A stretch of 47,972 nucleotides of DNA from Candidatus Deferrimicrobium sp. Lineage in GTDB: Archaea; Asgardarchaeota; Lokiarchaeia; Helarchaeales; HEL-GB-A. A program made the position numbers and the translations under genes. This document shows, piece after piece, positions 2,465 through 46,851 of the stretch. The notes below the pieces were generated by a model, which saw nothing but the letters and a program-made list of their open reading frames with translations, did no database searches and was not told the origin of the DNA. Each line of letters starts with the position of its first letter. The stretch's first letter is position 1. The stretch covers positions 1 through 47,972 of the forward strand of contig DATKTP010000150.1 in assembly GCA_035531115.1 (NCBI GenBank). The letters run 5' to 3'.

Positions 2465-3589
2465 TTATTCAATGTCTGTTGGTTGTTGTTTCCAATACCT
2501 GCCATATGCAATCCAATCTGGATATTTTTCAAATACTTCTTTCATAACTGGATTCTCAAAAAGGAAAATCCGTTTATATCGGAGATGCTTTTCAAGATCA
2601 TCTATATTCGTAATTTGATTGCATTCGAGATGAAAAACCGTTTTATTATCTGATAGATTTTGCACTGAACTGATCTGATTGTATCCAAGTAATACAAGAT
2701 TGAGTTGAACCGGGAAATCATTTCCAATAATTTCAGTAATGTGATTATTATCAAGTTCTAGATACTTTAATGCTGTTAATGAGTAAATACCATCTATTTT
2801 ATTAACACTATTAAATTTTAAACGCAAAATTTTCAGATTTTTTAAAGATGATAACCCCTCAATTAATTTTATTTGGTTGTTATTTAAATTCAGTTCATTG
2901 AGTTCAGTGAGATTTTCTAACCCTTCGATTTTTCCAATTCGATTTCCCTCCAGATTTAGCTCAGAAAGATTTCTGAGTGAATCTAACCCTTCAATTCGTG
3001 AAATATGATTGTACTCCAAGTTTAAAGAACGAAGTGCTGTTAAAGTATTTAAACCGCGGATCTCTGCAGGATCGTTATGAGAAAGATTCAATTTGATAAG
3101 TTTATTTAGATTCTCTAAGCCCTTTACCATTTGTATATTGTTATAGGAGAGATCTAGTTCCTCGAGATTTATTAATGCATCTAACTTTTTTATTTCAAAT
3201 AACCGATTATGAGAAAGATTTAGATGCTTAAGAGAGGTCAAATTATCTAAACCATTTATCTCTCCTATCTTATTATTCATACAAAATAAACTCTCGATTC
3301 TAGGAAAATGGTCTAAACCCTTTAAATCTTCAATTTGATTATTATTTAAAGATAAAGAACGTAGTTTAGGTAATTTTTCTAATAATATTAACCCTTCTAA
3401 ATTCCTAATCTTGTTATTATTCAGTTCCAAATACTTGAGCTTTCCCAGAGATTCCAGTCCTTCGACTTCTGAAAGATCTGAAAGTCTCTGATTGGATAAG
3501 TCTAATAATCCCCCCCTAGTTAGCCCAATCTTTTCACCATGTAGAACAATAGAGTCCGACATATTGGTATTTCCAATAAAGGTATTCAT
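2465..3589 (-). CDS. leucine-rich repeat protein with 22-residue SDS22/internalin-type repeats
   Basis: About 13 consecutive repeats fit the pattern LxxLxxLxLxxNxIxxIEGLExL (for example LKYLELNNNKIRNLEGL, LRSLNLEYNHISRIEGLDSL). Confidence 0.85.
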   Translation of the reverse strand: MNTFIGNTNMSDSIVLHGEKIGLTRGGLLDLSNQRLSDLSEVEGLESLGKLKYLELNNNKIRNLEGLILLEKLPKLRSLSLNNNQIEDLKGLDHFPRIESLFCMNNKIGEINGLDNLTSLKHLNLSHNRLFEIKKLDALINLEELDLSYNNIQMVKGLENLNKLIKLNLSHNDPAEIRGLNTLTALRSLNLEYNHISRIEGLDSLRNLSELNLEGNRIGKIEGLENLTELNELNLNNNQIKLIEGLSSLKNLKILRLKFNSVNKIDGIYSLTALKYLELDNNHITEIIGNDFPVQLNLVLLGYNQISSVQNLSDNKTVFHLECNQITNIDDLEKHLRYKRIFLFENPVMKEVFEKYPDWIAYGRYWKQQPTDIE

Positions 3590-3620: not shown

Positions 3621-4808
3621 TTATTTATCTTTATTTAAAAAGAGAATAAATAGTTTTTTCTCCTCAAAACGTGCGCTTCCTACTTTTAGATTTTTAGCAA
3701 TAGCAGGAAGAAGGAGAATTCGTTTATAATCTCCGATTTCAATAATTAATTCTTCCCCTTTTTTTCGAATTTTTGTTTCTCCTTTTTTTACGAAGGGTAA
3801 ATTAATGGTCATAATGATATTTCCTTCGAGATCAGTATCAATAGTAAAAGGCTTTTCATGGGAATAAACTTCCGTCGGATCACCTTTTTCACCATACATT
3901 TCCGTTGCTACTTGTTCGAGTAATTTTAATCCAATAACTTCTTCTTCTTTCAAATGAATTTTCAGTAATTTTAAAGGATAAAAAGTGGTTTCTATTCGTT
4001 GCATATATTTTTTTTGCGTTTCTTTCCATTTTTTAAAATATGGATCATTAATCGTTTCTGGTATAACTTTATTAATACAAAGTGCGTCAATATTTAGACC
4101 ATAAAGATTCATAAATGTTAGAGCTCGTTCACTTTCTAGAATTGGCATTTTTTCAAGGTTAGTTACAACGCGCACCGTCGTTTTTGTGGTTTCAACAAGA
4201 AGATTTCGCATATCATTCACCCGTTCCATCAAGCCTTGCATCTGTCCAAAAAAAAGTTCATCAGGAATTGGGGTTCGAACGACTTGTTCTGTTGTTTCTC
4301 GCAAGGGTTCAAAAATACGCATAATCCCCCGTTGAATTCGTAATAAATATTTCCCAAACAAACTAAAGACTTGAGGAAAACTGAGCAATCGAAATGTATG
4401 CCCTGTCGGAGCTGTATCCAGGACGATAACTTCGAATTTATTTATATATTCACTTATTTTTAAAATGGAAAATAATTCATCTAAACCTGGAAGTGCAACC
4501 ATTTCACTAGCAATAGCAGCTTCAATCCCTCTAGATTGAAAAAGACGTGTTAGAAAATTCCTAACAACCCCATAATTTTGCTCTATTTCCCGCTCTAATT
4601 CGATTTGAAGCCCATACAGATTTTTTCGAATTTCTCTCGGTTCTTCTACTCCTAATTCTACATCTAGACAGTCAGAGAGTGCCTGAACCGGATCACTTGA
4701 TAAAACAAGTGTCTTTTTTCCAATTTTAGCACATTGTAGGGCTGTGGCTGCTGCACAGGTCGTCTTACCAACTCCACCTTTCCCTGTAAAAATAAGTGTT
4801 CGTGCCAT
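3621..4808 (-). CDS. ArsA/Get3-family ATPase with C-terminal HSP20-like domain
   Basis: It has the deviant Walker A GKGGVGKTT, SSDPVQALSD, and the switch II signature DTAPTGHTFRLL. The C-terminal ~85 aa (IIMTINLPFVKKGETKIRKKGEELIIEIGDYKRILLLP) look like an alpha-crystallin/HSP20 beta-sandwich. Confidence 0.85.
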   Translation of the reverse strand: MARTLIFTGKGGVGKTTCAAATALQCAKIGKKTLVLSSDPVQALSDCLDVELGVEEPREIRKNLYGLQIELEREIEQNYGVVRNFLTRLFQSRGIEAAIASEMVALPGLDELFSILKISEYINKFEVIVLDTAPTGHTFRLLSFPQVFSLFGKYLLRIQRGIMRIFEPLRETTEQVVRTPIPDELFFGQMQGLMERVNDMRNLLVETTKTTVRVVTNLEKMPILESERALTFMNLYGLNIDALCINKVIPETINDPYFKKWKETQKKYMQRIETTFYPLKLLKIHLKEEEVIGLKLLEQVATEMYGEKGDPTEVYSHEKPFTIDTDLEGNIIMTINLPFVKKGETKIRKKGEELIIEIGDYKRILLLPAIAKNLKVGSARFEEKKLFILFLNKDK

Positions 4809-6013: not shown

Positions 6014-6412
6014 TTAAACTCCTCCAACGCGCCGTGCTTTCATTTTCCATTTCTTTTTAAAACGCTCTGTCTTATATTCAAGCCTGTCCCTGCCCTTTTG
6101 TTTAATTGCCCCGTATTGATCTGCTAATTTCATTAGTAAAGCTTTCGCATCCTTATTAATAATTGAAGCTGGATTCAGTAATCTGTCTATTATTTCCTTG
6201 CTATCTGCATTTTCTTCCAATCCCAGAGTTTTTAGCTGGATCATATATGAAGAAGTTGTCCATGTCTTTTCTTTTTTTAATAAACCTTTCACGCGAACAA
6301 TTTCGCCCTTCTTTGTAAGAAAGTTACTCTTGCTTTCCGTTATTTGCTTTGGTTCGTGAATATAAATTGTTACATATACTTCTTTTGGTTCTTGATTTTC
6401 TTCTTTAGGCAT
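6014..6412 (-). CDS. hypothetical basic protein ending in RRVGGV
   Basis: 132-aa ORF. Its ATG lies 3 nt after the stop of the upstream longin-like gene, suggesting translational coupling. I recognised no family. The C-terminus is KMKARRVGGV. Confidence 0.5.
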   Translation of the reverse strand: MPKEENQEPKEVYVTIYIHEPKQITESKSNFLTKKGEIVRVKGLLKKEKTWTTSSYMIQLKTLGLEENADSKEIIDRLLNPASIINKDAKALLMKLADQYGAIKQKGRDRLEYKTERFKKKWKMKARRVGGV

Positions 6413-6415
6413 GAT

Positions 6416-7051
6416 CTAGTCCTTCTTTTCATCATTTTTGGATATTATTCGTTTTAGTGCGCTTCTTACTTTCTTTGGTGCGTCTATTAAAAAATTTGGT
6501 GGATAGAATCTATTCATTTTATCGGTTATATTTTCTAAAAATCCAACCGTGTGGTCTAATTTTTCAAGTTCATTCTTATCCTTTGGAACGAATAGATTTG
6601 TAAATTTCTCAATTAATTTTTCAAATGAGCCTTTATTAATAAAATTAAAATCAATTTTATGGAGTTTAAGACCCTTACTATTCAAAATTTTGTCTAACTC
6701 TGTATCGAATTTCTGAAATACGGTAATATCATTGTTCCATATTGGGATAATTTCTCCAAATTCACGAAAAAAAGCTTCTTCAATTAAATCAATTTTTTCC
6801 CGAATTTTATCCTCCCGATCATCAGAATCGGCTGCAACCACAAAAATAATTTTTTGGTCCGTATATTTGTAATATAGGATAATATCATCAAGATTAATGC
6901 TTTTTAACTGCCGCTGGCTAATTTCCTTAGAAAAAGATAAAATTGCTACGAGAAATCCTGAGAACAATTGTTCATTTATGTTTAAATCTCGATATTCACG
7001 GTAATAAAGACACTTTCCGTCCGTATGGACGACCCAGATACCGGTAATCAT
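6416..7051 (-). CDS. longin-like (AP sigma / SNARE-like fold) domain protein
   Basis: The N-terminal ~105 aa read MITGIWVVHTDGKCLYYREY...LFSGFLVAILSFSKEI...IILYYKYTDQKIIFVVAADSDDREDKIREKIDLIEEAFFREFG. This mirrors the adaptor sigma-chain/longin pattern (MI-x-h-h-h-x-G-K-x-L-x-x-Y, then hhYrrY..hhFvv..d..dNe...le.I..fve.ld..Fg). Confidence 0.5.
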   Translation of the reverse strand: MITGIWVVHTDGKCLYYREYRDLNINEQLFSGFLVAILSFSKEISQRQLKSINLDDIILYYKYTDQKIIFVVAADSDDREDKIREKIDLIEEAFFREFGEIIPIWNNDITVFQKFDTELDKILNSKGLKLHKIDFNFINKGSFEKLIEKFTNLFVPKDKNELEKLDHTVGFLENITDKMNRFYPPNFLIDAPKKVRSALKRIISKNDEKKD

Positions 7052-7080: not shown

Positions 7081-9291
7081 CTAAAACATTTCATTTATTT
7101 GTTTAGATACAATTTTTACATCATCGGCGATCAGTAGAGCATCTCCCTCTTTATCAATTTTTAGTAATAAAAAGAGATTATCATTTATTGGGATCGCCAA
7201 AATATGGCCAAACCCTTTTATATTAGTAGCAATAAGCATATCTGTAGAAGCTTTTATCGTCGCGTATTTAGTATCCCCTAAAAATACTGAAGGCGCCTGT
7301 GCTTTCCAATTTTGGACTAATTTCGAAATATCGTTAGTTATGTCCCATAAATTCTGTTCCTTTGTTGTTTGATAAAAAATCGTTCCATTATAATCAATTA
7401 ATGCAAGATACAGTATTTCCGGGATTCCTAATAGACTATCAATAAAATTTAGAACTTCTGAAACTTTATCTTCTTCTGTATCGATTTCCTTACTTAAAAT
7501 TTCCGTATTATATGGTTGTTTATGTTGCTCTGGCTGAATATATGTTTCTATTTGCCCCTCGTTTGGTTTCATCAGGCTTTCAAATGATGGGGCCTTTGGA
7601 ATTTCTGGGATTATAAGGGAATTGATTGAAGAGGGGGAAATTGGTTTAGATGGTTGACTCTTTCCTAGAAGTTCTGAAGGGCGTAATAGTGGTGATTCGT
7701 CAATGATTGGAGTCGGACTTGGTGTAACTGGAGTATATGTAGAATCTGGGGTTCTTGTAGGAGGTGATGTAATAGGCATCTGTGGTAAATAAGGCGGTGT
7801 TTGTGGTTGGACTGGAGGTGTAACCTTTATAGGAATAGGTGTTATTGGGGTTACCACAGGTTCAGTAATTGCAGGTTTCCCACTCTTTTTAAATCTTCTT
7901 GAAGATTCTGAATTCAGCAATTTTTCTAACATCAATTCTCGATTCTTTTTTGAAACCATCATCAATTTATCTACTAACTTATTTTGAGCCGTTATCGGCA
8001 TCAATGGTAATTCTTCTTGAATTGTTCTAATATACGTCTCCCTTGCAAGTGTTTCATTTTCTGTTGGGGTTTCTTCAAGTATTTGTAGAGCCGTTTCAAC
8101 AGCTTCTTCTTTTGAGACGGTGGATCCTTCAGTAACTTTCTCATATTTTGCTTCCAATTCAAGAGTTTGATATTCAGTTTTCAATTTATCCTTAATTGCG
8201 ACGAGATGCATGAATTCGTCGATTGGAATCCGAATCCACCCCTTTTCTTCAAATTTTATAATAATTCTGAAAATGTCAAGGTAAGGTATTTGAGTTACCG
8301 TCTGTAAATCAAAAATTGAGTGTGCTCCATCCAATAATTCAAGAACGCGTTTCTCCTTCTCATCAAATCCCATAGTAAATGATACATTAGCAGTGAGAAT
8401 CGGTTTGATTAATAATTCAGGATGTGTTTTTTCCTCAACCGGTGCAACTTCAGCTTCTGCAGGCAGTTCTTCTTCTTCGGGAATTTTTACCGTCATCTTG
8501 ACAATTTTATTTTTCTCCATTTTTTCCAAAGTACTTTTTAGTTCTCTTTCAGAAATATTTAATTTATCTGCAATCTCTCTACATGTATTATTTCCATCAC
8601 ATAATTCGTTTATATCATAGCTTTTTTTGGAAATCATCCCTAATCTCACAGCTGTCTCTGGAAATTTCTTAATACTCACAGGACTAATTTCTACTTCCCC
8701 TTTAAATTCGAGTTTAAGCCATTCCTTCTCTTCATAACGACGGATAATATCTACCACATTTTTTCGTGGGATTCTTGTTTTATCAATTAGTTCTTTTATC
8801 GAATGACTTCCATCGCACAGCTTTAATACCCCTGATTCATCATCCGTCAATCCCATCGTTAATGATACAGTCTTTACTAATTTCGGCATAATATGCCCTT
8901 TTTCTTCTGTTACAATTGGTTTTGAGGTTGGTAATTCAATTGCAACTTTCAATTCATTGATAAAGTTACCAATCTTCGTTTTAAACGAGAGCAATTGCCC
9001 TTGATACCCTTTTTTTGTATAGAGAGCTAATAAAGTGTCATCTAATATTTTAAAAATCGCTAAATTTGTTCCTGCAAGTGGAAAAGCGTGCCCAAATATC
9101 GTCATTTGTTTAAATTCTGTAACATTGAATAATTTCAATAATTCTATGTGATTATCAAGCGCAGTACTTGCATATAATACGCTACCAGCCTTCAAAATAG
9201 CGATATAAACCCTTTCTAATAAGAGTTTCTCCATTTCACTCATTATATTTCCAGCGATCTCGTCTAAAGTTTTGGGCATATAATCCCCCAC
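7081..9291 (-). CDS. 736-aa multidomain scaffold: Roadblock-like N-domain, three winged-helix repeats, coiled coil, Pro-rich linker, profilin-like (or Roadblock-like) C-domain
   Basis: There are internal repeats at aa 137-197, 209-268 and 295-357 (LCDGSHSIKELIDKTRIPRKNVVDIIRRYEEKEWL / LCDGNNTCREIADKLNISERELKSTLEKMEKNKIV / LLDGAHSIFDLQTVTQIPYLDIFRIIIKFEEKGWI). The P/T/S-rich region covers aa 472-575. The C-terminal 127 aa carry the profilin-like motifs listed in the findings. Confidence 0.6.
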   Translation of the reverse strand: MGDYMPKTLDEIAGNIMSEMEKLLLERVYIAILKAGSVLYASTALDNHIELLKLFNVTEFKQMTIFGHAFPLAGTNLAIFKILDDTLLALYTKKGYQGQLLSFKTKIGNFINELKVAIELPTSKPIVTEEKGHIMPKLVKTVSLTMGLTDDESGVLKLCDGSHSIKELIDKTRIPRKNVVDIIRRYEEKEWLKLEFKGEVEISPVSIKKFPETAVRLGMISKKSYDINELCDGNNTCREIADKLNISERELKSTLEKMEKNKIVKMTVKIPEEEELPAEAEVAPVEEKTHPELLIKPILTANVSFTMGFDEKEKRVLELLDGAHSIFDLQTVTQIPYLDIFRIIIKFEEKGWIRIPIDEFMHLVAIKDKLKTEYQTLELEAKYEKVTEGSTVSKEEAVETALQILEETPTENETLARETYIRTIQEELPLMPITAQNKLVDKLMMVSKKNRELMLEKLLNSESSRRFKKSGKPAITEPVVTPITPIPIKVTPPVQPQTPPYLPQMPITSPPTRTPDSTYTPVTPSPTPIIDESPLLRPSELLGKSQPSKPISPSSINSLIIPEIPKAPSFESLMKPNEGQIETYIQPEQHKQPYNTEILSKEIDTEEDKVSEVLNFIDSLLGIPEILYLALIDYNGTIFYQTTKEQNLWDITNDISKLVQNWKAQAPSVFLGDTKYATIKASTDMLIATNIKGFGHILAIPINDNLFLLLKIDKEGDALLIADDVKIVSKQINEMF

Positions 9292-9415: not shown

Positions 9416-10513
9416 ATGGGAAACTTAATTGAAAATGAGAGCGCTTTGATCTTGCAAGAATATAGTACTGATTATAATGAAGATAAGCCTGCCGATATCA
9501 AAATTTATTTGTCGATTACACCCGAAATTCATTATTCAATTCAGATAAACTTTGAAACCTATCCTGAAAAACCCAAACTTATCCTTCCCTCTCAATTGCA
9601 CGAGGATTTAGGGGAACCCGAAAGTCTTCTGCATGTTTTACATAACTGGAATCCCCAAAATCCTTCCCATGTCGTCGAAATTATCCATGAATTAGAAGAA
9701 TTTCTCCAACGAATAATACATCCGACTGATGAAATGGAGGAGATTACGATGGAGTTTAACGCTCACATGATCGGTCCTCACAAGATGCAGGTTACTCTTT
9801 TCTCATATAAAATGAAAGTCTTCGAATTTCAAATTTCCCAGAATAAGCCAGATCCGCCTCTTCTTATTCTAAGTCATGAACTTGAGAAAATTATCAAACC
9901 GAATGAACTTTATACTTTACAGAATTGGCAGAACTATCGCCTTATTGATATCTGTCGAGAGCTTTCCAAAAAAATTGACCACCGAACTCGAATTCTTGAT
10001 GAACTTAAATTACTAGAAAAGAGAACTGAATATCAAAAAATCATAAAAAAATGGAATGCCCAAGAATTGATAATCGGCATCCGAATTGAAATTGAAACTG
10101 GGGAAAATTGTGAAATTGATGTAATAATATTAGAGGAATTTCCTGTTGCGCCCCCAAATGTTGAGCTGATAAACACTAGTATGGGCGAGATCTCTGATGA
10201 TTTTAATAACTTTTTGCTCTCAATTTACAATGAATGGGTAAATGCAAACACTTTAGTGGAAATGCTTGACGATATACGAAATTTTCTTAAAAGCAAATCC
10301 AAACATATCTGTCAAATCTGTCATGAGTATAAATGTCCAAAATGCAATAAACCAATAAGAATTTTAAAAGTGGTGGGAATTTCAGGAGAAAACGAATGTA
10401 AACATCAATGTAATTCATGCAACTCTATGTTTCATAATTGTTGTTGGAGCGAACAAACAAAACTCACTCGAAAATGCCCCATCTGTTATATATCACTTTC
10501 TAGCGGATGGTAA
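9416..10513 (+). CDS. three tandem RWD/UBC-like (catalytic-Cys-less) folds followed by a C-terminal RING-type zinc finger; putative E3 ligase
   Basis: GGAGA lies 8 nt upstream of the ATG. The three repeats carry INFETYPEKPKLILPSQL, FQISQNKPDPPLLILSHEL and VIILEEFPVAPPNVELI, resembling the RWD YPxxxP strand-turn. Cys/His ligands are C299-x2-C302, C307-x2-C310, C328-x-H330-x-C332-x2-C335, H340, C342/C343 and C354-x2-C357. Confidence 0.55.
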   Translation: MGNLIENESALILQEYSTDYNEDKPADIKIYLSITPEIHYSIQINFETYPEKPKLILPSQLHEDLGEPESLLHVLHNWNPQNPSHVVEIIHELEEFLQRIIHPTDEMEEITMEFNAHMIGPHKMQVTLFSYKMKVFEFQISQNKPDPPLLILSHELEKIIKPNELYTLQNWQNYRLIDICRELSKKIDHRTRILDELKLLEKRTEYQKIIKKWNAQELIIGIRIEIETGENCEIDVIILEEFPVAPPNVELINTSMGEISDDFNNFLLSIYNEWVNANTLVEMLDDIRNFLKSKSKHICQICHEYKCPKCNKPIRILKVVGISGENECKHQCNSCNSMFHNCCWSEQTKLTRKCPICYISLSSGW

Positions 10514-10672: not shown

Positions 10673-11800
10673 ATGAGCGATGAAGAACGACCTAATAAAG
10701 GAAAACAAGACAAAAAAGATGACTCCTTCTTTTCTGATGTGTTAGATGCCTTGGATAAACCCGTTTCAGATGAAGCCAGTTCTCCTCAAGCAGGTGTTTA
10801 TCAACCAGATCAAAGTAGTATTCCCGCACAACCTAGTGTTCCACAAAGCCTATTTCCCTACGCTCCTGACATGAATGATCCAAACGCCTATCCCGATTTC
10901 CAAGGTGCAAAATTCTATGTCGATACCCGCGATTATTTCAAAGCTATTAGTAGCCTCACTAATATTCTTCGGGTTCAGCACGCTACTACGGATAAAAATA
11001 TGGCATCTGAATTAGTCTTAGAATTGGCTAAAACTGACCCTTCAATTCTCGATCCATTACTCCCTTATCTGATTTTAGTAGAAGATTCCGCAGATCCCAT
11101 TATAAATATGAATATTAATAATAGCTTGCTTTATCTTCGCGTATCCTACAATAACGTCGTTACCCGTCTAAAAGAGATCGTTAAATCTTTCGTAGAGTCA
11201 TATTATACGCAGTTTAATACGACTTACATTCCCTTTATCGATATTCTTACCCGAATAGGCACGAGTATAGAAGTCATTATCAAAATCTTAGAATTAATGA
11301 CGAAAAACAGAGAACTCACTGGGAAATTAGATTTTGCCGGTCAAGTATTCGCGTATGAACCACCTGGTGCCTTATACCTATGTCCACATTGCGGGATCGA
11401 ATTGAAAAAAGATGCAAATTTCTGTCCCAATTGCTTAAAAGAAGTCTTTAAATGTGCCATTTGTTTCCGCTTTATCAAGCCTGATGAGCTTGTCCGGTGT
11501 CCAAAATGCTCCATCCCCGCCCACGAACAACATTTTCTGGAATGGGTCAAGAAAACGGGGGCTTGTCCGAGCTGCCAAAACAAGCTCTACGAGCAGGAAG
11601 TCGCGAAAGTCCAGTGCATTGTGTGCAGTCTGGAAATTAAAAGTAGCGAGAAGGTAGAAAATCTAACTAAATGTCCAGCCTGCGGCGGAATCGCCCACAA
11701 AGATCATTTCCTAGATTACATTCGCATGTCGAATCACTGTCCCGAATGTAAGAAGCCAATCGATTACAAGGAATTAAAGAAGTTACTGAAGAAAAAATGA
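10673..11800 (+). CDS. protein with an acidic/PQ-rich N-terminus, a helical middle, one zinc ribbon and two tandem cross-brace (PHD/RING-H2-like) zinc fingers
   Basis: The zinc ribbon is CPHC-x12-CPNC. The first finger is C261-x2-C-x11-C-x2-C-x4-H-x2-H-x10-C-x2-C301. The second, C315-x2-C-x15-C-x2-C-x4-H-x2-H-x10-C-x2-C359, has the same pattern. H-x2-HF-x2-W resembles the RING-H2 core. Confidence 0.55.
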   Translation: MSDEERPNKGKQDKKDDSFFSDVLDALDKPVSDEASSPQAGVYQPDQSSIPAQPSVPQSLFPYAPDMNDPNAYPDFQGAKFYVDTRDYFKAISSLTNILRVQHATTDKNMASELVLELAKTDPSILDPLLPYLILVEDSADPIINMNINNSLLYLRVSYNNVVTRLKEIVKSFVESYYTQFNTTYIPFIDILTRIGTSIEVIIKILELMTKNRELTGKLDFAGQVFAYEPPGALYLCPHCGIELKKDANFCPNCLKEVFKCAICFRFIKPDELVRCPKCSIPAHEQHFLEWVKKTGACPSCQNKLYEQEVAKVQCIVCSLEIKSSEKVENLTKCPACGGIAHKDHFLDYIRMSNHCPECKKPIDYKELKKLLKKK

Positions 11801-37482: not shown

Positions 37483-39495
37483 TTAGTCCTTAATTTCCCC
37501 CCTACCCCCGGGAAGAGCCCGTTGTATTTCGTCAAGAGGGATATTTCGAATCATTTCTTTATAAGATTCATTGCTACTTCCCTTTAATAATTGTGCTTTA
37601 ATGAGCTTGGCAAGTTCAGAACCTGATTTGTCTCCAAATGTGATTTCGATGGAGATTTGTGTATGTTTTTTTATTGCTTCGGGAGGTCCTGACATCACTA
37701 TTGCAAATTTTTCCTCAAATTTCACGCCTAACCTCAATTTGAGAGGTACATTTTTAAATGGATTTTTTGTTCCTCGAATAATAAAAGATCCTTTTTGCAG
37801 ATATTCACCAGATGGGGGAGTTTGAGACACTTGGTTTGCAAGAACATAATAAACATCTGCCTGACCATATTGAGACTTCCAAGCGCTAGAAAACGTAATC
37901 TCAAACTGGGCAGCCTCCCGTTGAGTTTGTTCTGGTACTTGTTTTCCCTCTGTCTTAACTACAACCACAGGCGCCCCATGAAATACTGCATGGAAAAAAA
38001 TATCTTCCTCCGCCATATATCTTTTTACAATCAGCTCATTCGTCTTTAAATCGCGCCCCCCTATCACAAGAAATCCATCTGATGAAATAAACCAATGAAA
38101 TTTTTCATACCAATGCTTCTTTCTCATTTCACGCAGTTTTGTCTCTTTTTTAGCAATAATCTCGGCTTCAAGTTCTATTTGATCCTTTTGTTTTAACATC
38201 CGTTGATATGCAGCTTTAGCGCCCTCTAATTTCGCTGCTGATTTCTTTGCTTTCGTATAAAAATTGTTTGCATTATCTGCAACGGATTTCCGAAAATCAA
38301 CAGGAAATTCTTCTCCTTCTATGTTTAAAAGAAGTATCGCATTTGTATAATCAATTTTTTTAACTAGATGTGCCGGTACAACATTTTTTTTCTTAGCTTC
38401 CCGGATGATTGTTTCAATTTCCTTCCATGATTTACCATTACTGCGTGCTTTTTTAATAGAAATTAGTAATTCTTCGATGCTCTGAAAGTTTTGATATAAA
38501 ATATCGCCCAATCGTCTGAAACGAACTGAACCTTGTTCTAATTGCTGAATCGCTACTTCTTGTTTCTTAAGAATTTTATCTGTTTTAGTTAAATCTGTTT
38601 TTTTATCTTTGAGCTCAATGGTTTTTATTTTAATTTCTTCATTCGCACTGAAAAATTCGTCTGCCGCTGTATTAAAATTATCAAAATTTTGTCTTTTTGC
38701 ATCTGAAAATTGAATAAGTTCGATCGGGGCTAAGATTTTATTTGCATCAATCTCATAAATACCTGGATTAAATTTATTAATATTAAAGGATGAAATAAAA
38801 TCCCTCATGATCTCAAAGATACCTTCTAAATTTTCGTCAGATAGAGATGTACATTGCATTTCCTTTTCGAGATGTACTCTAAAACATATTTCTTCTGCAT
38901 AAATTGGACTAATATTCAAATTCATTATAAGAGTCCTTATGAGATTTTGATCGGTGGACTGAAAAATCGCTTTCAAATCATTTAAGGTTAATTTATTAAT
39001 ATCCACTCCTCTTGAAGGCGCAAAGTTAAATTCCCGATTTGGAATGATGCGCCTATCACGCATTGTTCTATAACTCAATGCGATTATTACTTTTCCATTA
39101 GAATCTAAAAGAACTAGATTTCCCCTTTCAAAAAATTCTACGATCAATTTATTGTTACATTTCTGTATCTCGTCTTCTGTGCTAAGCCGTCCTACTTCGA
39201 TAATTATTACACGGTCAAATTCATGCTGCTCTATTCCCAAAACCCGCTGATTTCTTAGATATTTCCGTAAGGTCATGCAAAACTTGGAAGGTATCTTAGG
39301 TTTCTGACGCTCATATTTAGTTAAATGGACTCGTTTCGCGGGTTCAATTAATAATTCTACATTTCCTTCTTTTGTCCGGAATTTTATCGTAAAAAGTGAA
39401 TCTATTTGATATACATTGCTGATCCATTGCTTAGTAACTAACGATTTAAGCTCAGATACGATTGCTGCAATATCGAAAGACGACATTTCTGTCAA
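37483..39495 (-). CDS. NFACT-family protein (FbpA / Rqc2 / NEMF homolog), ribosome quality control
   Basis: 670 aa. It has an NFACT-N-like N-terminus, a central coiled coil and a DUF814/NFACT-R block (FHWFISSDGFLVIGGRDLKTNELIVKRY...FFHAVFHGAPVVVVK). Confidence 0.85.
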   Translation of the reverse strand: MTEMSSFDIAAIVSELKSLVTKQWISNVYQIDSLFTIKFRTKEGNVELLIEPAKRVHLTKYERQKPKIPSKFCMTLRKYLRNQRVLGIEQHEFDRVIIIEVGRLSTEDEIQKCNNKLIVEFFERGNLVLLDSNGKVIIALSYRTMRDRRIIPNREFNFAPSRGVDINKLTLNDLKAIFQSTDQNLIRTLIMNLNISPIYAEEICFRVHLEKEMQCTSLSDENLEGIFEIMRDFISSFNINKFNPGIYEIDANKILAPIELIQFSDAKRQNFDNFNTAADEFFSANEEIKIKTIELKDKKTDLTKTDKILKKQEVAIQQLEQGSVRFRRLGDILYQNFQSIEELLISIKKARSNGKSWKEIETIIREAKKKNVVPAHLVKKIDYTNAILLLNIEGEEFPVDFRKSVADNANNFYTKAKKSAAKLEGAKAAYQRMLKQKDQIELEAEIIAKKETKLREMRKKHWYEKFHWFISSDGFLVIGGRDLKTNELIVKRYMAEEDIFFHAVFHGAPVVVVKTEGKQVPEQTQREAAQFEITFSSAWKSQYGQADVYYVLANQVSQTPPSGEYLQKGSFIIRGTKNPFKNVPLKLRLGVKFEEKFAIVMSGPPEAIKKHTQISIEITFGDKSGSELAKLIKAQLLKGSSNESYKEMIRNIPLDEIQRALPGGRGEIKD

Positions 39496-39739: not shown

Positions 39740-40609
39740 GTGGAATTTAAGGATAAAATTTATTATTCAAAGATTTTATTAGCAGGAATCTCAAGTATTG
39801 TTTGTAATCTTTTAACTATACTCGGTTTTTTATTCCATTTTGGTCATGCTCAGGCATTTGGTGTTGCCTTTGGATGGGGGATTTTGGTTATTTATTGTTT
39901 ACTCCTTAATTGGCTCCTTAGTAAAAGGCCAGATAGCGAGAAAATCTTTTTAGATATAGGTGGTAAGAGAAAAATTGTTATGGAAGGTCTTGGAGGATAC
40001 GTCACTTTTTGGGTCAGCACGTGGGCACTCTCCTATTCCTTTTTACATTATGTACTTTGGCCTGAATTATACACACCTGAAATATTAGGACCGCCCTTCT
40101 TTGCAAATGCCCCCTATTTCATTACCACTCTTCTAATTCTTGGAATCTCGTTTGCGTTGTCCTCAACAAGCAGTCTTTTATCCTTAAAAATTATGGATGT
40201 GAAACGCTTAAAACGATATTCAAAGGAGATTAAGAAATTTAAAGACCTTGAAAAACATGTTAAAGAAACAGGCGATAAAAAGGCTGCAATAAAATTAAAA
40301 CGGAAACAGAAGTACATCGAAAAGATAACAAGAACTACGATGTGGCAACGGATGAAACCTATGCTATTTTACATGGTGCCCTTTATGATTCTATTTTTTA
40401 TATTGAGTAGTACTTTCAAAAATACCACCTGTGCTATGTTCCCCTTTAATATCTCAGTAGTTCCACTTCTGAATATGTTCATTCGATCTCCTGGGGGTGT
40501 ATATTTACCTATGGGCTATCCCTTAGGTTATGTCAGTTGGTATATCGTCTCCTCTTTTGGATTTACAACAGTTATTCAAAAAGTGCTTGGGCTTCGCTTT
40601 GAGCAATGA
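39740..40609 (+). CDS. DUF106 / EMC3-TMCO1-Get1-like (Oxa1 superfamily) membrane protein with three extra N-terminal TM segments
   Basis: The core runs TM, then a basic coiled coil (KRLKRYSKEIKKFKDLEKHVKETGDKKAAIKLKRKQKYIEKITRTTMWQRMKPMLFYMVPFMILFF), then two further TMs. This is the DUF106 layout. About 120 additional hydrophobic N-terminal residues precede it. It uses a GTG start. Confidence 0.55.
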   Translation: MEFKDKIYYSKILLAGISSIVCNLLTILGFLFHFGHAQAFGVAFGWGILVIYCLLLNWLLSKRPDSEKIFLDIGGKRKIVMEGLGGYVTFWVSTWALSYSFLHYVLWPELYTPEILGPPFFANAPYFITTLLILGISFALSSTSSLLSLKIMDVKRLKRYSKEIKKFKDLEKHVKETGDKKAAIKLKRKQKYIEKITRTTMWQRMKPMLFYMVPFMILFFILSSTFKNTTCAMFPFNISVVPLLNMFIRSPGGVYLPMGYPLGYVSWYIVSSFGFTTVIQKVLGLRFEQ

Positions 40610-42146: not shown

Positions 42147-43409
42147 TTACTTTCCATCCTCTGGTTCTTCCCATCCGAGCACCTTTAGCGCTTCCAGTAC
42201 TGCTTCTTTATCGGAAATTTTAAAGAGATCTTCATCATCTCCTGTAGTAGCTGCAGGAGCCGTAGCTACGAAAGGTATATTTGCGGGTTTAGCTGCAGTT
42301 TTTGCGGGAGCTGGTTGTCCAACAAAAGGTATTTGCTGCCGAGCAGGTTGTGGGCGCGAAACAGGTTGTGTGGGTTGTGGTTTTGCTTGTGGTTTTAAAG
42401 CATCCATTAATGCTTGCGTATCTACCTTTGAAGTAGTTGCCGTGGTGGGCGCAGGCTCTTTTTCTGTTCCTAATGCTTGTAGTGCTTCAAAAAGCGCACT
42501 TTTATCAATAGAACCTGAGGAAGGTTTAGGTGAAATAGGTTTCGGTTCTTCAATCGCAATTGGCTCAGGCTCAAAACTTACTGGAATCGGTTCCGGTTCT
42601 TCACTTATTGCAATAGGCTCCGGTTCCTCGATCGCAATCGGTTCAGGTTCCTCAATTGTCTGAATTGTCTCTGGTTCCTCAATAATACTCAGTGCCTCCA
42701 ATGCCTCCGAAATTTTATCTTCTACAGGTTCCGGTTGTACTTGAGAGAATTGCGGGGTTTGTAGATGAGTAGGTCTAGGTGTTGGAGTCATTGCTTTCGG
42801 TATTTGCGCCGTACTGACAGCTGGCTGTGCCCTAACAGTTGAAGTAGGACCTTCTAACAGGGATGCTGCAGTAGGACCCACAGCTCCAACTGGCATTGGA
42901 GCAGGTTTTGGTACTGGAGTAGGCGCTTCAATTGCATATCCCAATGTTTCAGCAACTTTTGCAGAAAACCGATGAAGTAATGCTAAATAATACCCCATAC
43001 GTGAAGTATTTTTACAAGAGCCAACTATCATATGTTTGGGTCCAGCAGAAGTTAAAATAGTATATCCGTCTTCTCCTCTTACAATAATCTCTTTGAGGCT
43101 TCCATGGCGTAGTTGTCTTAAAGTGGTTTCTCCTAAATTAACTAAGGCAGCACTGGCTGCTGAATATACATCTGCATCAAGTTCTGCACCAACGGCACAG
43201 GCAATTCTCATTCCCTCCTTGGAAACAACAGCGCACGCTTCGAGTTCCGTTCTCGCTTCTAACTTCTGTAATAAATTGGTAAGTAGGTGTTTTGTCTCTT
43301 CTGATAATTGTTCTTCCATTTCTTTTTCACTTCTCTTCCTTAATTTAGTAAAAATCTTTCCTGATAGCAATACTATGCTTATTTGGGGGTGATTATTTAT
43401 CAAATACAA
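42147..43409 (-). CDS. Roadblock/LC7-domain protein with long Pro-rich C-terminal region containing EPEPIAI repeats
   Basis: The Roadblock core reads ELEACAVVSKEGMRIACAVGAELDADVYSAASAALVNLGETT...EIIVRGEDGYTILTSAGPKHMIVGS. The repeats read IEEPETIQTIEEPEPIAIEEPEPIAISEEPEPIPVSFEPEPIAIEEPKPI. The true start is probably the internal ATG at 43319 (MEEQLSEE). Confidence 0.65.
   Translation of the reverse strand: MYLINNHPQISIVLLSGKIFTKLRKRSEKEMEEQLSEETKHLLTNLLQKLEARTELEACAVVSKEGMRIACAVGAELDADVYSAASAALVNLGETTLRQLRHGSLKEIIVRGEDGYTILTSAGPKHMIVGSCKNTSRMGYYLALLHRFSAKVAETLGYAIEAPTPVPKPAPMPVGAVGPTAASLLEGPTSTVRAQPAVSTAQIPKAMTPTPRPTHLQTPQFSQVQPEPVEDKISEALEALSIIEEPETIQTIEEPEPIAIEEPEPIAISEEPEPIPVSFEPEPIAIEEPKPISPKPSSGSIDKSALFEALQALGTEKEPAPTTATTSKVDTQALMDALKPQAKPQPTQPVSRPQPARQQIPFVGQPAPAKTAAKPANIPFVATAPAATTGDDEDLFKISDKEAVLEALKVLGWEEPEDGK
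42540..42690 (-). repeat. imperfect in-frame tandem repeat (24-27 nt units) encoding E-E-P-E-P-I-A-I
   Basis: The plus strand shows repeated ggttc(t/c)tc(a/g)at(c/t)gcaat(n)gg(c/t)tc units in at least five copies. Confidence 0.7.
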
Positions 43410-45921: not shown

Positions 45922-46851
45922 TTAATGCCTTTTGCTTATACGCTTCATTCTTTCTCCCCTTAAACCGCGGAGTTCCCTTAAACGTGCAGGAAGTGATTCT
46001 ATCCCACAACCAATAAGATCCAAGCGTTTGAGTGCTTGTAGATTTTCTAGGCTCGCAGGTAATTCAGTTAAGAATTTAGAACCGATAATTGATAATTTTT
46101 TGAGTGCTTTTAAATTTCCCATACTCTCAGGTAATCTAATAAATCCAAAACATCCAAAAAGGCTTAATTCTTGAAGTGCCTGTAAACTTCCTATGCTCTC
46201 AGGTATTGGCTCTCTTACATTGTAAATATATAATTTTTTTAATGACATTAAATTCCCATTTCTATTTAAAAACGAACAAAATGCGACCCCATCAACCCAT
46301 AATACTTGGAGTTTATGTAATTCAGTCACATTGGTAGGCAATTCTTTTATTTCGGAACAGTTTCTAATATGCAATTTTTTAAGAGAGCTTAAATTACCAA
46401 TAGTTTCGGGTAAATTAGTTAAGGACTTACAGCCCTTTAACGAAAGTATTTTAAGTTTTTGTAGATTCCCTATTTCTTTATCTATTTTTTTTAAGCAATG
46501 ACACTCATCTAAATATAAAAATTCTAGTGATTGAAAGGATTTCAGGACTTTAAATTCTTCAAATGTATTAAAGGGAAAAATAGCGTCTTTCCGTTTTAGA
46601 AACTCATAAAATGATTTCAAATCTTTCAAATCTTTAAATTTATTGAAGGTCTGTGGTAGATCAGGAGCTAGATCACTAATATCGGTATAATTGCTTAGAT
46701 ACAGCGCCTTAAGCCCCGTAAGTTCCTCCAGCCCCTCAATTTGATGCATATATGAAATTCTTTTTCGACGAAGATCTAATTTACCTCTATCATCCAGAAA
46801 GATTTTCTCCCCATGCACCATAACAAACTGCTTATGGGTATCGGGCGCCAC
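45922..46851 (-). CDS. leucine-rich repeat protein (Cys-containing, plant/ROCO-type LRRs)
   Basis: The repeats resemble IGNLQKLKILSLKGCKSLTNLPETIGNLSSLKKLHIRNCSEIKELP and SIGSLQALQELSLFGCFGFIRLPESMGNLKALKKLSI. It uses a GTG start at 46851 or an ATG at 46821. Confidence 0.8.
   Translation of the reverse strand: MAPDTHKQFVMVHGEKIFLDDRGKLDLRRKRISYMHQIEGLEELTGLKALYLSNYTDISDLAPDLPQTFNKFKDLKDLKSFYEFLKRKDAIFPFNTFEEFKVLKSFQSLEFLYLDECHCLKKIDKEIGNLQKLKILSLKGCKSLTNLPETIGNLSSLKKLHIRNCSEIKELPTNVTELHKLQVLWVDGVAFCSFLNRNGNLMSLKKLYIYNVREPIPESIGSLQALQELSLFGCFGFIRLPESMGNLKALKKLSIIGSKFLTELPASLENLQALKRLDLIGCGIESLPARLRELRGLRGERMKRISKRH

Follow-up and report, generated by a model that had tools for sequence, protein, structure and literature searches.

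Profilin is a eukaryotic signature protein (ESP) that has been used to argue for a regulated, pre-eukaryotic actin cytoskeleton in Asgard archaea, and to our knowledge all biochemistry to date concerns small, free-standing Asgard profilins. The locus described here raises the question of whether an Asgard profilin can also be a module of a much larger protein and, if so, what it might do there. It lies in a 47,972-nucleotide (nt) stretch of DNA, referred to below as the window (contig DATKTP010000150.1, positions 1 to 47,972, GenBank assembly GCA_035531115.1), deposited as Candidatus Deferrimicrobium sp. and assigned by GTDB to the Asgard order Helarchaeales (HEL-GB-A). A reverse-strand open reading frame (ORF) in this window encodes a conserved Helarchaeota protein in which an Asgard-type profilin domain forms the C-terminal ~130 amino acids (aa), preceded in order by a Roadblock-like domain, three winged helix-turn-helix (wHTH) units, a helical module and a Pro/Ser/Thr-rich linker. 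The architecture, paralogy and gene linkage are established, as are the identities of the domains and their conservation; the function of the protein is an unproven lead on actin localisation or sensing.

7081..9291, minus strand: whole ORF, multidomain profilin fusion protein, 736 aa counted from the GTG at 9291
7084..7476, minus strand: C-terminal profilin-family domain, aa 606-736, order α-β2-α-β5-α, from sequence, hhalign, AlphaFold2 (AF2) and Foldseek

Residue numbers follow the 736-aa count from the GTG. The ATG at 9279, which gives a 732-aa product, is probably the real start of the gene, because an identical public gene call (P0001, 100%) is 732 aa long and orthologues of the protein begin MPK....

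An Asgard-type profilin domain at the C-terminus

The four segments on which the initial annotation had founded its proposal of a C-terminal profilin-like domain (VLNFIDSLLG, LALIDYNGTIFYQT, VFLGDTKYATIKAS and LFLLLKIDKEGDALLIADDVKIVSKQI) are all located in the last 127 aa of the ORF, and the domain itself is real: PDB sequence matches, a family profile, hhalign and AF2/Foldseek all agree on it. With this 127-aa piece as phmmer query against 177,635 PDB sequences, the significant matches were exclusively Asgard profilins, namely those of Thor (7pbh, E 6.7e-8), Odin (5zza_P, 3.8e-7), Loki-1 (5yed, 5.6e-5), Heimdall (6yrr, 1.3e-4) and Loki-2 (5zzb, 4e-4), and Roadblock, MglB and longin chains were absent even at E<=10. 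A profile built from 12 orthologous domains retrieved Asgard profilins from the PDB at E 2.6e-11 and 5.4e-11, and no Roadblock chain. Profile-profile comparison by hhalign gave a probability of 99.7% against 17 free-standing Asgard profilins (E 3.7e-27, 122 columns); the N-terminal domain of the same protein reached 1.2%, and a genuine PF03259 domain encoded elsewhere in the window (42147..43409), which served as internal Roadblock control, 0.3%. All of the Asgard-profilin motifs are present ([YW]Q[TS], WD[IL][ST], PS[IV], G[IV]KY, LIATN.xGxGH and GD).

The predicted structure points the same way. The profilin fold is described as a seven-stranded antiparallel sheet with terminal helices, built on a core that profilin, Roadblock and longin have in common, with an additional strand motif in the place where Roadblock has half of its central helix (PMC10933270). 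The AF2 model of the C-terminal domain (predicted local distance difference test (pLDDT) score 92, predicted template-modelling score (pTM) 0.86) has the predicted elements H-E-E-H-E-E-E-E-E-H, hence seven strands and not five as in Roadblock, and its folded part begins at ~aa 606-610. When this model was compared with the PDB by Foldseek, ranks 1-7 were profilins, led by Odin profilin from an actin complex (E 6.8e-11, TM 0.78/0.85, root-mean-square deviation (rmsd) 1.9 Å).

The initial annotation had cautioned that the shared core could make this a second Roadblock domain instead. Roadblock structures do enter the Foldseek list from rank 8 (E 2.8e-5, rmsd 5.4 Å), and JGI labels some genuine free profilins as Roadblock/LC7/MglB family; the profilins, however, stand six orders of magnitude ahead in Foldseek E with the far lower rmsd, Robl_LC7 matched none of the 12 orthologous domains at E<=10 while the Profilin model matched six of them, and the hhalign probabilities and the seven strands leave a second Roadblock/LC7 at the C-terminus rejected. 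We reject equally an assembly or frameshift artefact, which is ruled out by the same uninterrupted architecture in ~20 independent assemblies; between them these two explanations retain a negligible chance of being correct. The profile and structure searches that had been proposed as a check thus put profilin far above Roadblock/MglB. As for the labels, the JGI/IMG name 'predicted regulator of Ras-like GTPase activity (Roadblock/LC7/MglB family)' is carried by the P0037 cluster and P0107, whose near-identical relatives are named 'profilin family protein' by NCBI, so that automated annotation mixes both folds.

The curated Profilin model registers the domain poorly. PF00235 matched it at 16.3 bits, under the gathering score of 25, and all six matches among the 12 orthologous domains were likewise sub-threshold; because a precomputed PF00235 match is missing too for many accepted 122-aa Asgard profilins, we conclude that this model, built mainly on eukaryotes, is insensitive to Asgard profilins. 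The suggestion that the last 127 aa align with eukaryotic profilins landmark for landmark was therefore right about the profilin likeness and overstated in its target, since it is Asgard profilins that the domain truly resembles, the residues that contact actin in eukaryotes are unconserved, and identity to human profilin-1 (sequence confirmed against the PDB) is 17%. Judged from sequence and the predicted model, the domain is a bona fide member of the Asgard profilin family. It is part of a 732/736-aa protein and not a small single domain like the described Asgard profilins; this context is a point of difference and no ground to exclude it from the family.

The likeness to the Odin, Thor and Loki profilins, which bind actin, is strongest in the strands KYATIK...LIATNIKGFGHI. 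This is the profilin-specific strand motif, fully retained and highly conserved in the fusion domain; the strands in question contact actin, and the corresponding position in Roadblock proteins holds a dimerisation helix (PMC10933270). The initial annotation had named loss of the actin-contact face as a reason to abandon the assignment, and these strands turn out to be the best-conserved part of the domain. We also aligned the domain to heimProfilin (6yrr), with a numbering that reproduced nearly all residues quoted by Survery et al. (2021; PMC8410842), N36 being mismatched. Mutation of heimProfilin F95 and G104 weakened inhibition of filament elongation, and R88 and F84 were actin-shifted (PMC8410842); in the fusion domain F95 corresponds to L686, G104 to the invariant G695, R88 to the invariant K680 and F84 to Y676, and G63 lands in a gapped region of the alignment. 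These equivalents are compatible with retained actin binding and are no proof of it. The presumed ligand, Lokiactin, is reported in all Asgard lineages (PMC9834061), and the fusion profilin domain may bind actin.

Domain architecture and its conservation

The ~605 residues ahead of the profilin domain comprise at least five folded modules and a disordered linker, in a protein that is acidic as a whole (isoelectric point (pI) 5.2):

8917..9291, minus strand: N-terminal Roadblock-like domain by predicted fold, aa 1-125, order α-β-β-α-β-β-α, from AF2 and Foldseek
8701..8901, minus strand: wHTH unit 1, ~aa 131-197, Pfam HTH_47 and MarR-type matches at aa 155-195
8482..8700, minus strand: wHTH unit 2, ~aa 198-270, Pfam TrmB at aa 230-266
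8416-8481, minus strand: acidic spacer before wHTH unit 3, aa 271-292
8218..8415, minus strand: wHTH unit 3, ~aa 293-358, Pfam HTH_47 with its best stretch at aa 316-353
7882..8217, minus strand: helical region, aa 359-470, helicity suggested by sequence and alignments
7477..7881, minus strand: Pro/Ser/Thr-rich variable linker, aa 471-605, from composition, proline runs and alignment
7666..7710, minus strand: short linear motif in the linker, aa 528-542, P-[VI]-I-[DE]-E-x-P-L-[LIV]-x-P-S-x-[LI]-[LVF], here PIIDESPLLRPSELL

Approximately 20 full-length orthologues of 690-760 aa, 55-66% identical, are found in metagenome-assembled genomes (MAGs) with the label Helarchaeota or Promethearchaeota. 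Conservation among them is highest in the profilin domain and wHTH2, both at 78% mean pairwise identity, so that the profilin domain is under strong purifying selection. A scan of species-representative genomes returned four loci, and both original Guaymas Basin Helarchaeota MAGs are represented: the long form is found in Hel_GB_A, and the 509-aa protein of Hel_GB_B is a short form, matching residues ~130-736 alone. Short forms (Hel_GB_B, P0034, L008) have no Roadblock-like domain, and the sequence upstream of them is AT-rich and non-coding at the L005 locus and an unrelated opposite-strand gene at L008 and L009. The combination with Roadblock and winged-helix modules, which the initial annotation had put forward as a new architecture, accordingly holds for the long form, with the N-terminal domain Roadblock-like by predicted fold, three wHTH units and ~20 orthologues.

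For aa 1-125, the AF2 model (pLDDT 86) predicts helix-strand-strand-helix-strand-strand-helix and, on this predicted structure, agrees with the Roadblock fold (α-β-β-α-β-β-β-α). In Foldseek, the Roadblock domain of a Roadblock-Longin protein from Lokiarchaeota (8yqk/8yql, E 6.5e-5, TM 0.55-0.65) comes first, followed by MglB and then LAMTOR; all top matches are Roadblock/MglB/LAMTOR, at modest scores. The region has no Pfam match, its 12-sequence profile has no PDB match, and hhalign gave 0.1% against the PF03259 domain of the window. The N-terminal domain is thus predicted to be Roadblock-like in fold and is not a PF03259 member.

The middle region is recognised by curated wHTH models. The TrmB match in wHTH2 scores 29.2 bits, over the cut-off of 25.6, and HTH_47, which matches three stretches overall, scores 35.5 bits in wHTH3, over the cut-off of 27.1. 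wHTH1 and wHTH2 have basic pI values (9.2 and 8.6), wHTH3 an acidic one (5.2); mean pairwise identity among orthologues is 76% for wHTH1, and the orthologue alignment of wHTH2 contains the near-invariant stretch PxSIKKFPETAVRLGMISKKxYDxNELCxG. A Pfam scan of the full protein detected no Regulator_TrmB domain, and a profile of the wHTH units together with the helical middle region drew marginal matches to regulators alone from the PDB (E 0.05-0.3). Within the helical region, a conserved module at aa 424-470 (ELPLMP...KL...RE.ML.KLLNSESS.KFK) is 57% identical among orthologues versus 39% for the helices before it, and is kept in the short forms too.

The linker is quite different in character. 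The Pro/Thr/Ser-rich segment with TPPVQPQTPPYLPQMP at aa 472-575 (nt 7567-7878) lies where the initial annotation had placed it, and the full linker of the window protein measures 135 aa, with 22% Pro, 21% Ser+Thr and a longest proline run of two. Among 18 orthologues the linker is 92-151 aa long and 33% identical; proline content is 14-33% in all long-form orthologues, and the longest runs range from two to five prolines (several PPPP/PPPPP), unconserved in both presence and position. Short-form linkers are shorter and have no polyproline runs. The idea that the protein carries its own polyproline ligand consequently finds no support, with runs of at most two prolines here, unconserved runs in the orthologues and none in the short forms. 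What is conserved is the short motif PIIDESPLLRPSELL, with invariant P528, I530, E532, P538 and S539 and near-invariant L535, in a linker that is otherwise unalignable; it is not clearly present in short forms. The linker therefore looks mainly like an extended, flexible tether with one conserved short motif.

Related profilin fusions and the gene neighbourhood

An exhaustive hidden Markov model search of 1.84 billion cluster representatives with the C-terminal profile recovered 58 proteins at E<=1e-3, including free-standing profilins of ~120-130 aa; a word-indexed search with the same profile gave six matches, mostly fragments, and a search with a free-standing-profilin profile gave 1201, including 122-aa profilins of Helarchaeota MAGs. 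The 122-aa profilin P0139 has the same locus-tag prefix (HWN65) as the fusion orthologue P0002, aligning solely to its C-terminal domain (30% identity, E 4e-11), and the prefix ACFFD2 is common to a free profilin (P0182), a wHTH fusion (P0021) and a coiled-coil fusion (P0029). Because 122-aa profilins carry the same locus-tag prefixes, the fusion is not the organism's sole profilin; it is an extra, specialised paralogue beside the canonical one. A rough neighbour-joining tree (no bootstrap) groups the long-form, short-form and coiled-coil profilin domains in a single clade, separate from free-standing profilins, to which these fusion-type domains are 21-31% identical.

The coiled-coil fusions (P0031, 770 aa, Helarchaeota NVM54115.1; P0030, P0035, P0051 and P0029) consist of an SMC- or tropomyosin-like coil with a profilin end. 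The P0031 profilin domain is the nearest relative of the domain studied here (41% identity), and in these proteins the profilin domain is preceded by repeated PLLG/GLLG motifs related to the linker motif. Several other Asgard proteins came to light in the same searches. A Ras-family GTPase (PF00071) is followed by a C-terminal profilin-type domain in P0052 (390 aa, E 1e-31) and P0072 (323 aa, E 3e-28), and P0057 combines a related profilin domain with a PPLPPPSLHPPPPP tract and a C-terminal zinc ribbon. P0073 (420 aa, Promethearchaeota MFX1256398.1) and P0080 (416 aa) have an N-terminal profilin-type domain, a TrmB wHTH and a C-terminal domain, and are a second, independent combination of profilin with wHTH. 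A family of ~200 aa, very abundant in Loki-, Thor-, Hermod- and Hodarchaeota MAGs (for example, P0125, P0129, P0142, P0164, P0170, P0194, P0039, P0041, P0044 and P0048), joins an N-terminal profilin through a low-complexity linker to a ~50-aa helical module with the motif ..IDNFxxWIKxPxGLxxYIDYY... Finally, P0040 (574 aa), with His/Trp/Gln-rich repeats and eight stretches that match the profile just at NxKGFxHxV, is probably a tandem repeat translated spuriously or out of frame and not a profilin.

Two genes follow the fusion gene on the same strand:

6416..7051, minus strand: 211-aa gene, possibly longin-like, beginning 29 nt past the fusion stop, at a conserved position in long-form loci
6014..6412, minus strand: gene for a 132-aa basic protein (pI 9.8), a neighbour of both long and short forms

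Long-form loci share this order of fusion gene, ~210-aa gene and ~133-aa gene. The 211-aa orthologues have sub-threshold matches to Fuz_longin_1 in three of five cases and to Intu_longin_1 in one of five (MON1/FUZ and CCZ1/INTU types), and beyond this longin lead PDB sequence and profile, Pfam and NCBIfam searches with the 211-aa protein gave nothing. The gene is found exactly where the Roadblock-like domain occurs and is missing from short-form loci, which suggests that the domain and the 211-aa product, being gained or lost together, act together. The 132-aa protein has an invariant basic-aromatic C-terminal tail (YKT.RFKKKWKMK.RR) and matched no known family in the same set of searches; it is 44% identical (E 2e-31) to the product of the gene adjoining the short form at L005. 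In the short-form loci of Hel_GB_B and L008, a convergent ~125-aa homologue lies directly downstream despite unrelated flanks. Because the pair is conserved across two clades and in two contexts, this argues for a functional link between the fusion gene and the ~130-aa gene.

Divergently upstream, and syntenic in long-form loci, are genes for a Cys-rich protein of 365 aa with a weak Rubicon-homology-like zinc-finger C-terminus (9416..10513, plus strand; E 0.01) and a Cys-rich protein of 375 aa with RING-H2, a zinc ribbon and a Pro/Gln-rich N-terminus (10673..11800, plus strand). Elsewhere in the window, the protein with the genuine PF03259 domain (42147..43409, minus strand; 420 aa, E 1.9e-12 at aa 45-129) continues for ~290 residues that have no Pfam match. 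Two leucine-rich-repeat proteins are encoded at 2465..3589 and 45922..46851 (both minus strand; LRR_4 E 3e-41 and LRR_14 E 3e-29). Such repeats are less typical of archaea than of eukaryotes and bacteria. Three eukaryote-like genes of protein biogenesis encode an ArsA/Get3-type ATPase with an HSP20-like domain (3621..4808, minus strand), an EMC3/TMCO1-like membrane insertase (39740..40609, plus strand) and an NFACT protein of ribosome quality control (37483..39495, minus strand).

Possible roles and significance of a tethered profilin

The reading that we favour, though tentatively and at somewhat under an even chance, is that the fusion is a modular adaptor whose tethered profilin binds Lokiactin and whose wHTH array anchors it to a second partner. 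In such an arrangement the profilin domain would bind monomeric Asgard actin, the Pro-rich segment would act as an extended, flexible tether, and the wHTH array would hold the protein on DNA or on a protein platform. The long form would extend this anchor by the Roadblock-like domain, probably paired with the longin-like 211-aa product, and the ~130-aa basic neighbour would be a probable subunit. Actin monomers would thereby be concentrated, delivered or reported at one particular site, and bulk buffering would be left to the free profilin. An anchor is supported by TrmB and HTH_47 matches over the Pfam cut-offs and by the basic character of wHTH1-2, and modularity by the fact that one clade of profilin domains is joined to wHTH arrays or to long coiled coils.

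Several observations weigh against an actin adaptor. The fusion-type domains form a divergent clade of their own and a canonical profilin co-exists with them, so the fused copy could have changed partner; the tree that supports the adaptor is itself a neighbour-joining tree without bootstrap. Conservation of the profilin-specific strands is no proof of an actin interface, because the same strands are structural core. The eukaryotic actin-contact residues (as listed in PMC8410842) are unconserved, although this mapping is uninformative, because actin-binding Asgard profilins fail to conserve them too. No actin, gelsolin or other cytoskeletal gene lies near the fusion gene within the window. On the side of the anchor, the Roadblock call for aa 1-125 comes from fold prediction, at modest scores and unsupported by sequence, and DNA binding by the wHTH array is a prediction for a protein that is acidic as a whole. 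Tandem winged helices also commonly bind proteins.

Some of these points lead directly to an alternative that is unlikely, though the likeliest of the rivals, namely exaptation independent of actin, in which the profilin fold would be the interaction module of a Helarchaeota-specific complex, its partner being the ~130-aa protein or GTPase regulators of the Roadblock/longin type. The separateness and divergence of the fusion-type domains beside a canonical profilin in the same MAGs would fit this, as would a helix at aa 616-625 that is invariant on both faces, suggestive of a clade-specific surface, the conserved linkage to the ~130-aa orphan, and the Roadblock-like and longin-like features of the long form; furthermore, profilin-Ras GTPase fusions exist elsewhere in Asgard (P0052, P0072), and profilin, Roadblock and longin have a core fold in common (PMC10933270). 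It is harder to reconcile with the complete and highly conserved profilin-specific strand insert, at the place where Roadblock has a dimerisation helix (PMC10933270), with the retention of family-wide profilin motifs and of the equivalents of heimProfilin F95, G104 and R88, or with a similarity to Roadblock that is undetectable at the sequence level by hhalign and Pfam. Rather unlikely, in our estimation, is a transcription regulator of one-component style, with DNA-bound wHTH units, a profilin domain that senses the G-actin pool (MRTF-like) or another ligand, and gene expression as output; if the ligand is actin, this overlaps the adaptor model. TrmB/MarR-type wHTH matches over cut-off, basic wHTH1-2 and invariant basic patches speak for a regulator, together with the independent profilin-TrmB family (P0073, P0080) and one orthologue that JGI labels an Lrp-family regulator. 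Yet three tandem wHTH units with no recognisable dimerisation or TrmB sensor domain are atypical for archaeal regulators, and a disordered tether of 92-151 aa between DNA-binding and sensor modules is unusual for one-component ones; wHTH3 is acidic, as is the protein overall, short forms do not keep the KTRIPRK basic patch of wHTH1, and the regulator matches of the middle region are marginal (E 0.05-0.3).

The linker as a ligand of its own profilin domain, for intramolecular autoinhibition or an FH1-like relay, is quite improbable. Such a role would draw on the proline content of the linker in all long-form orthologues, several with PPPP/PPPPP. Polyproline binding varies among Asgard profilins, with weak binding in Thor and Heimdall and none reported for Odin and Loki (PMC8410842), and the last two are the closest structural relatives of the domain. 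The human polyproline cluster W3, Y6, W31, H133 and Y139 maps to V613, F616, Y640, Q731 and F736, so that three of the five positions are aromatic (F616, Y640, F736) and the W3 and H133 equivalents are lost. The short and unconserved proline runs, and the shorter short-form linkers that have none, also speak against a self-ligand, and Pro/Thr/Ser-rich stretches are ordinary interdomain linkers.

The fusion protein resembles several known systems in part. Free-standing Asgard profilins (Loki-1/-2, Odin, Thor and Heimdall; 5yed, 5yee, 5zzb, 5zza, 7pbh, 6yrr) share its family, motifs and predicted fold, but are single domains of 120-150 aa, whereas the fusion domain is the C-terminal tenth-to-fifth of ~730 aa and falls in a separate clade. 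Like the fusion, heimProfilin and thorProfilin have extra N-terminal sequence, for which a modulating influence on polyproline and lipid binding has been proposed (Survery et al., 2021; PMC8410842); these extensions are unstructured and at most 25 residues long, and among 256 Asgard profilins surveyed none exceeded 25 residues (PMC8410842), in line with the initial annotation's view that the described ones are small and free-standing and in contrast to the ~605 residues of the fusion. Formin FH1 and Ena/VASP also place a long, Pro-rich, presumably extended segment tied to profilin beside an anchor, but they bind profilin non-covalently and act on the filament through FH2/EVH2; here profilin is covalent, FH2, EVH1 and WH2 were undetected in the fusion, and the window linker has no true polyproline tracks (repeated runs of at least five prolines). 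The Lokiarchaeota Roadblock-Longin protein (8yqk/8yql), MglB and Ragulator/LAMTOR are the best structural matches of the N-terminal domain, and a weakly longin-like neighbour co-occurs with it; unlike in those platforms, there is no PF03259 membership, no adjacent GTPase gene, and the domain is dispensable in short forms. The other Asgard fusions (P0031; P0052 and P0072; P0073 and P0080; the ~201-aa proteins with a C-terminal extension) use profilin as a module too, with other partners or in another position, and none unites a Roadblock-like domain, triple wHTH and a Pro-rich linker.

We found no multidomain profilin described in the main texts of the Asgard profilin and ESP literature searched, a mention in a supplement being possible; reviews and structural papers to 2026 treat small free-standing Asgard profilins only. 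According to Liu et al., Asgard signature proteins have as a general rule undergone extensive domain shuffling that is restricted to particular lineages; these authors group profilins with the Roadblock superfamily, and their main text mentions no profilin fusion. The fusion thus places a known domain family in a conserved architecture that is undescribed, in keeping with this tendency to shuffle. Polyproline-bearing recruiters of profilin-actin such as eukaryotes have 'have yet to be discovered in Asgard archaea' (PMC9433394). More speculatively, and with a small chance of being right, the fusion might belong to Asgard machinery that couples profilin-actin to a site, in which a profilin anchored to DNA, a membrane or a GTPase platform feeds Lokiactin monomers to filaments growing there, or signals the G-actin pool to transcription in MRTF-like fashion; in the feeding version it would be a covalent forerunner of the formin-FH1/VASP relay or a ParR-like adaptor between DNA and filament. 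If this were true, the coiled-coil, GTPase and TrmB fusions would represent a wider, undescribed Asgard toolkit of targeted profilins.

If the domain proves not to bind actin, the protein would be an example of the repurposing of the profilin fold, which would matter whenever profilin homologues are counted as evidence of cytoskeletal complexity. Either way, the profilin domain was shuffled into larger proteins within Asgard archaea, and the fusion offers a concrete candidate, one that can be tested, for localised or sensed regulation of actin among the archaea most closely related to eukaryotes.

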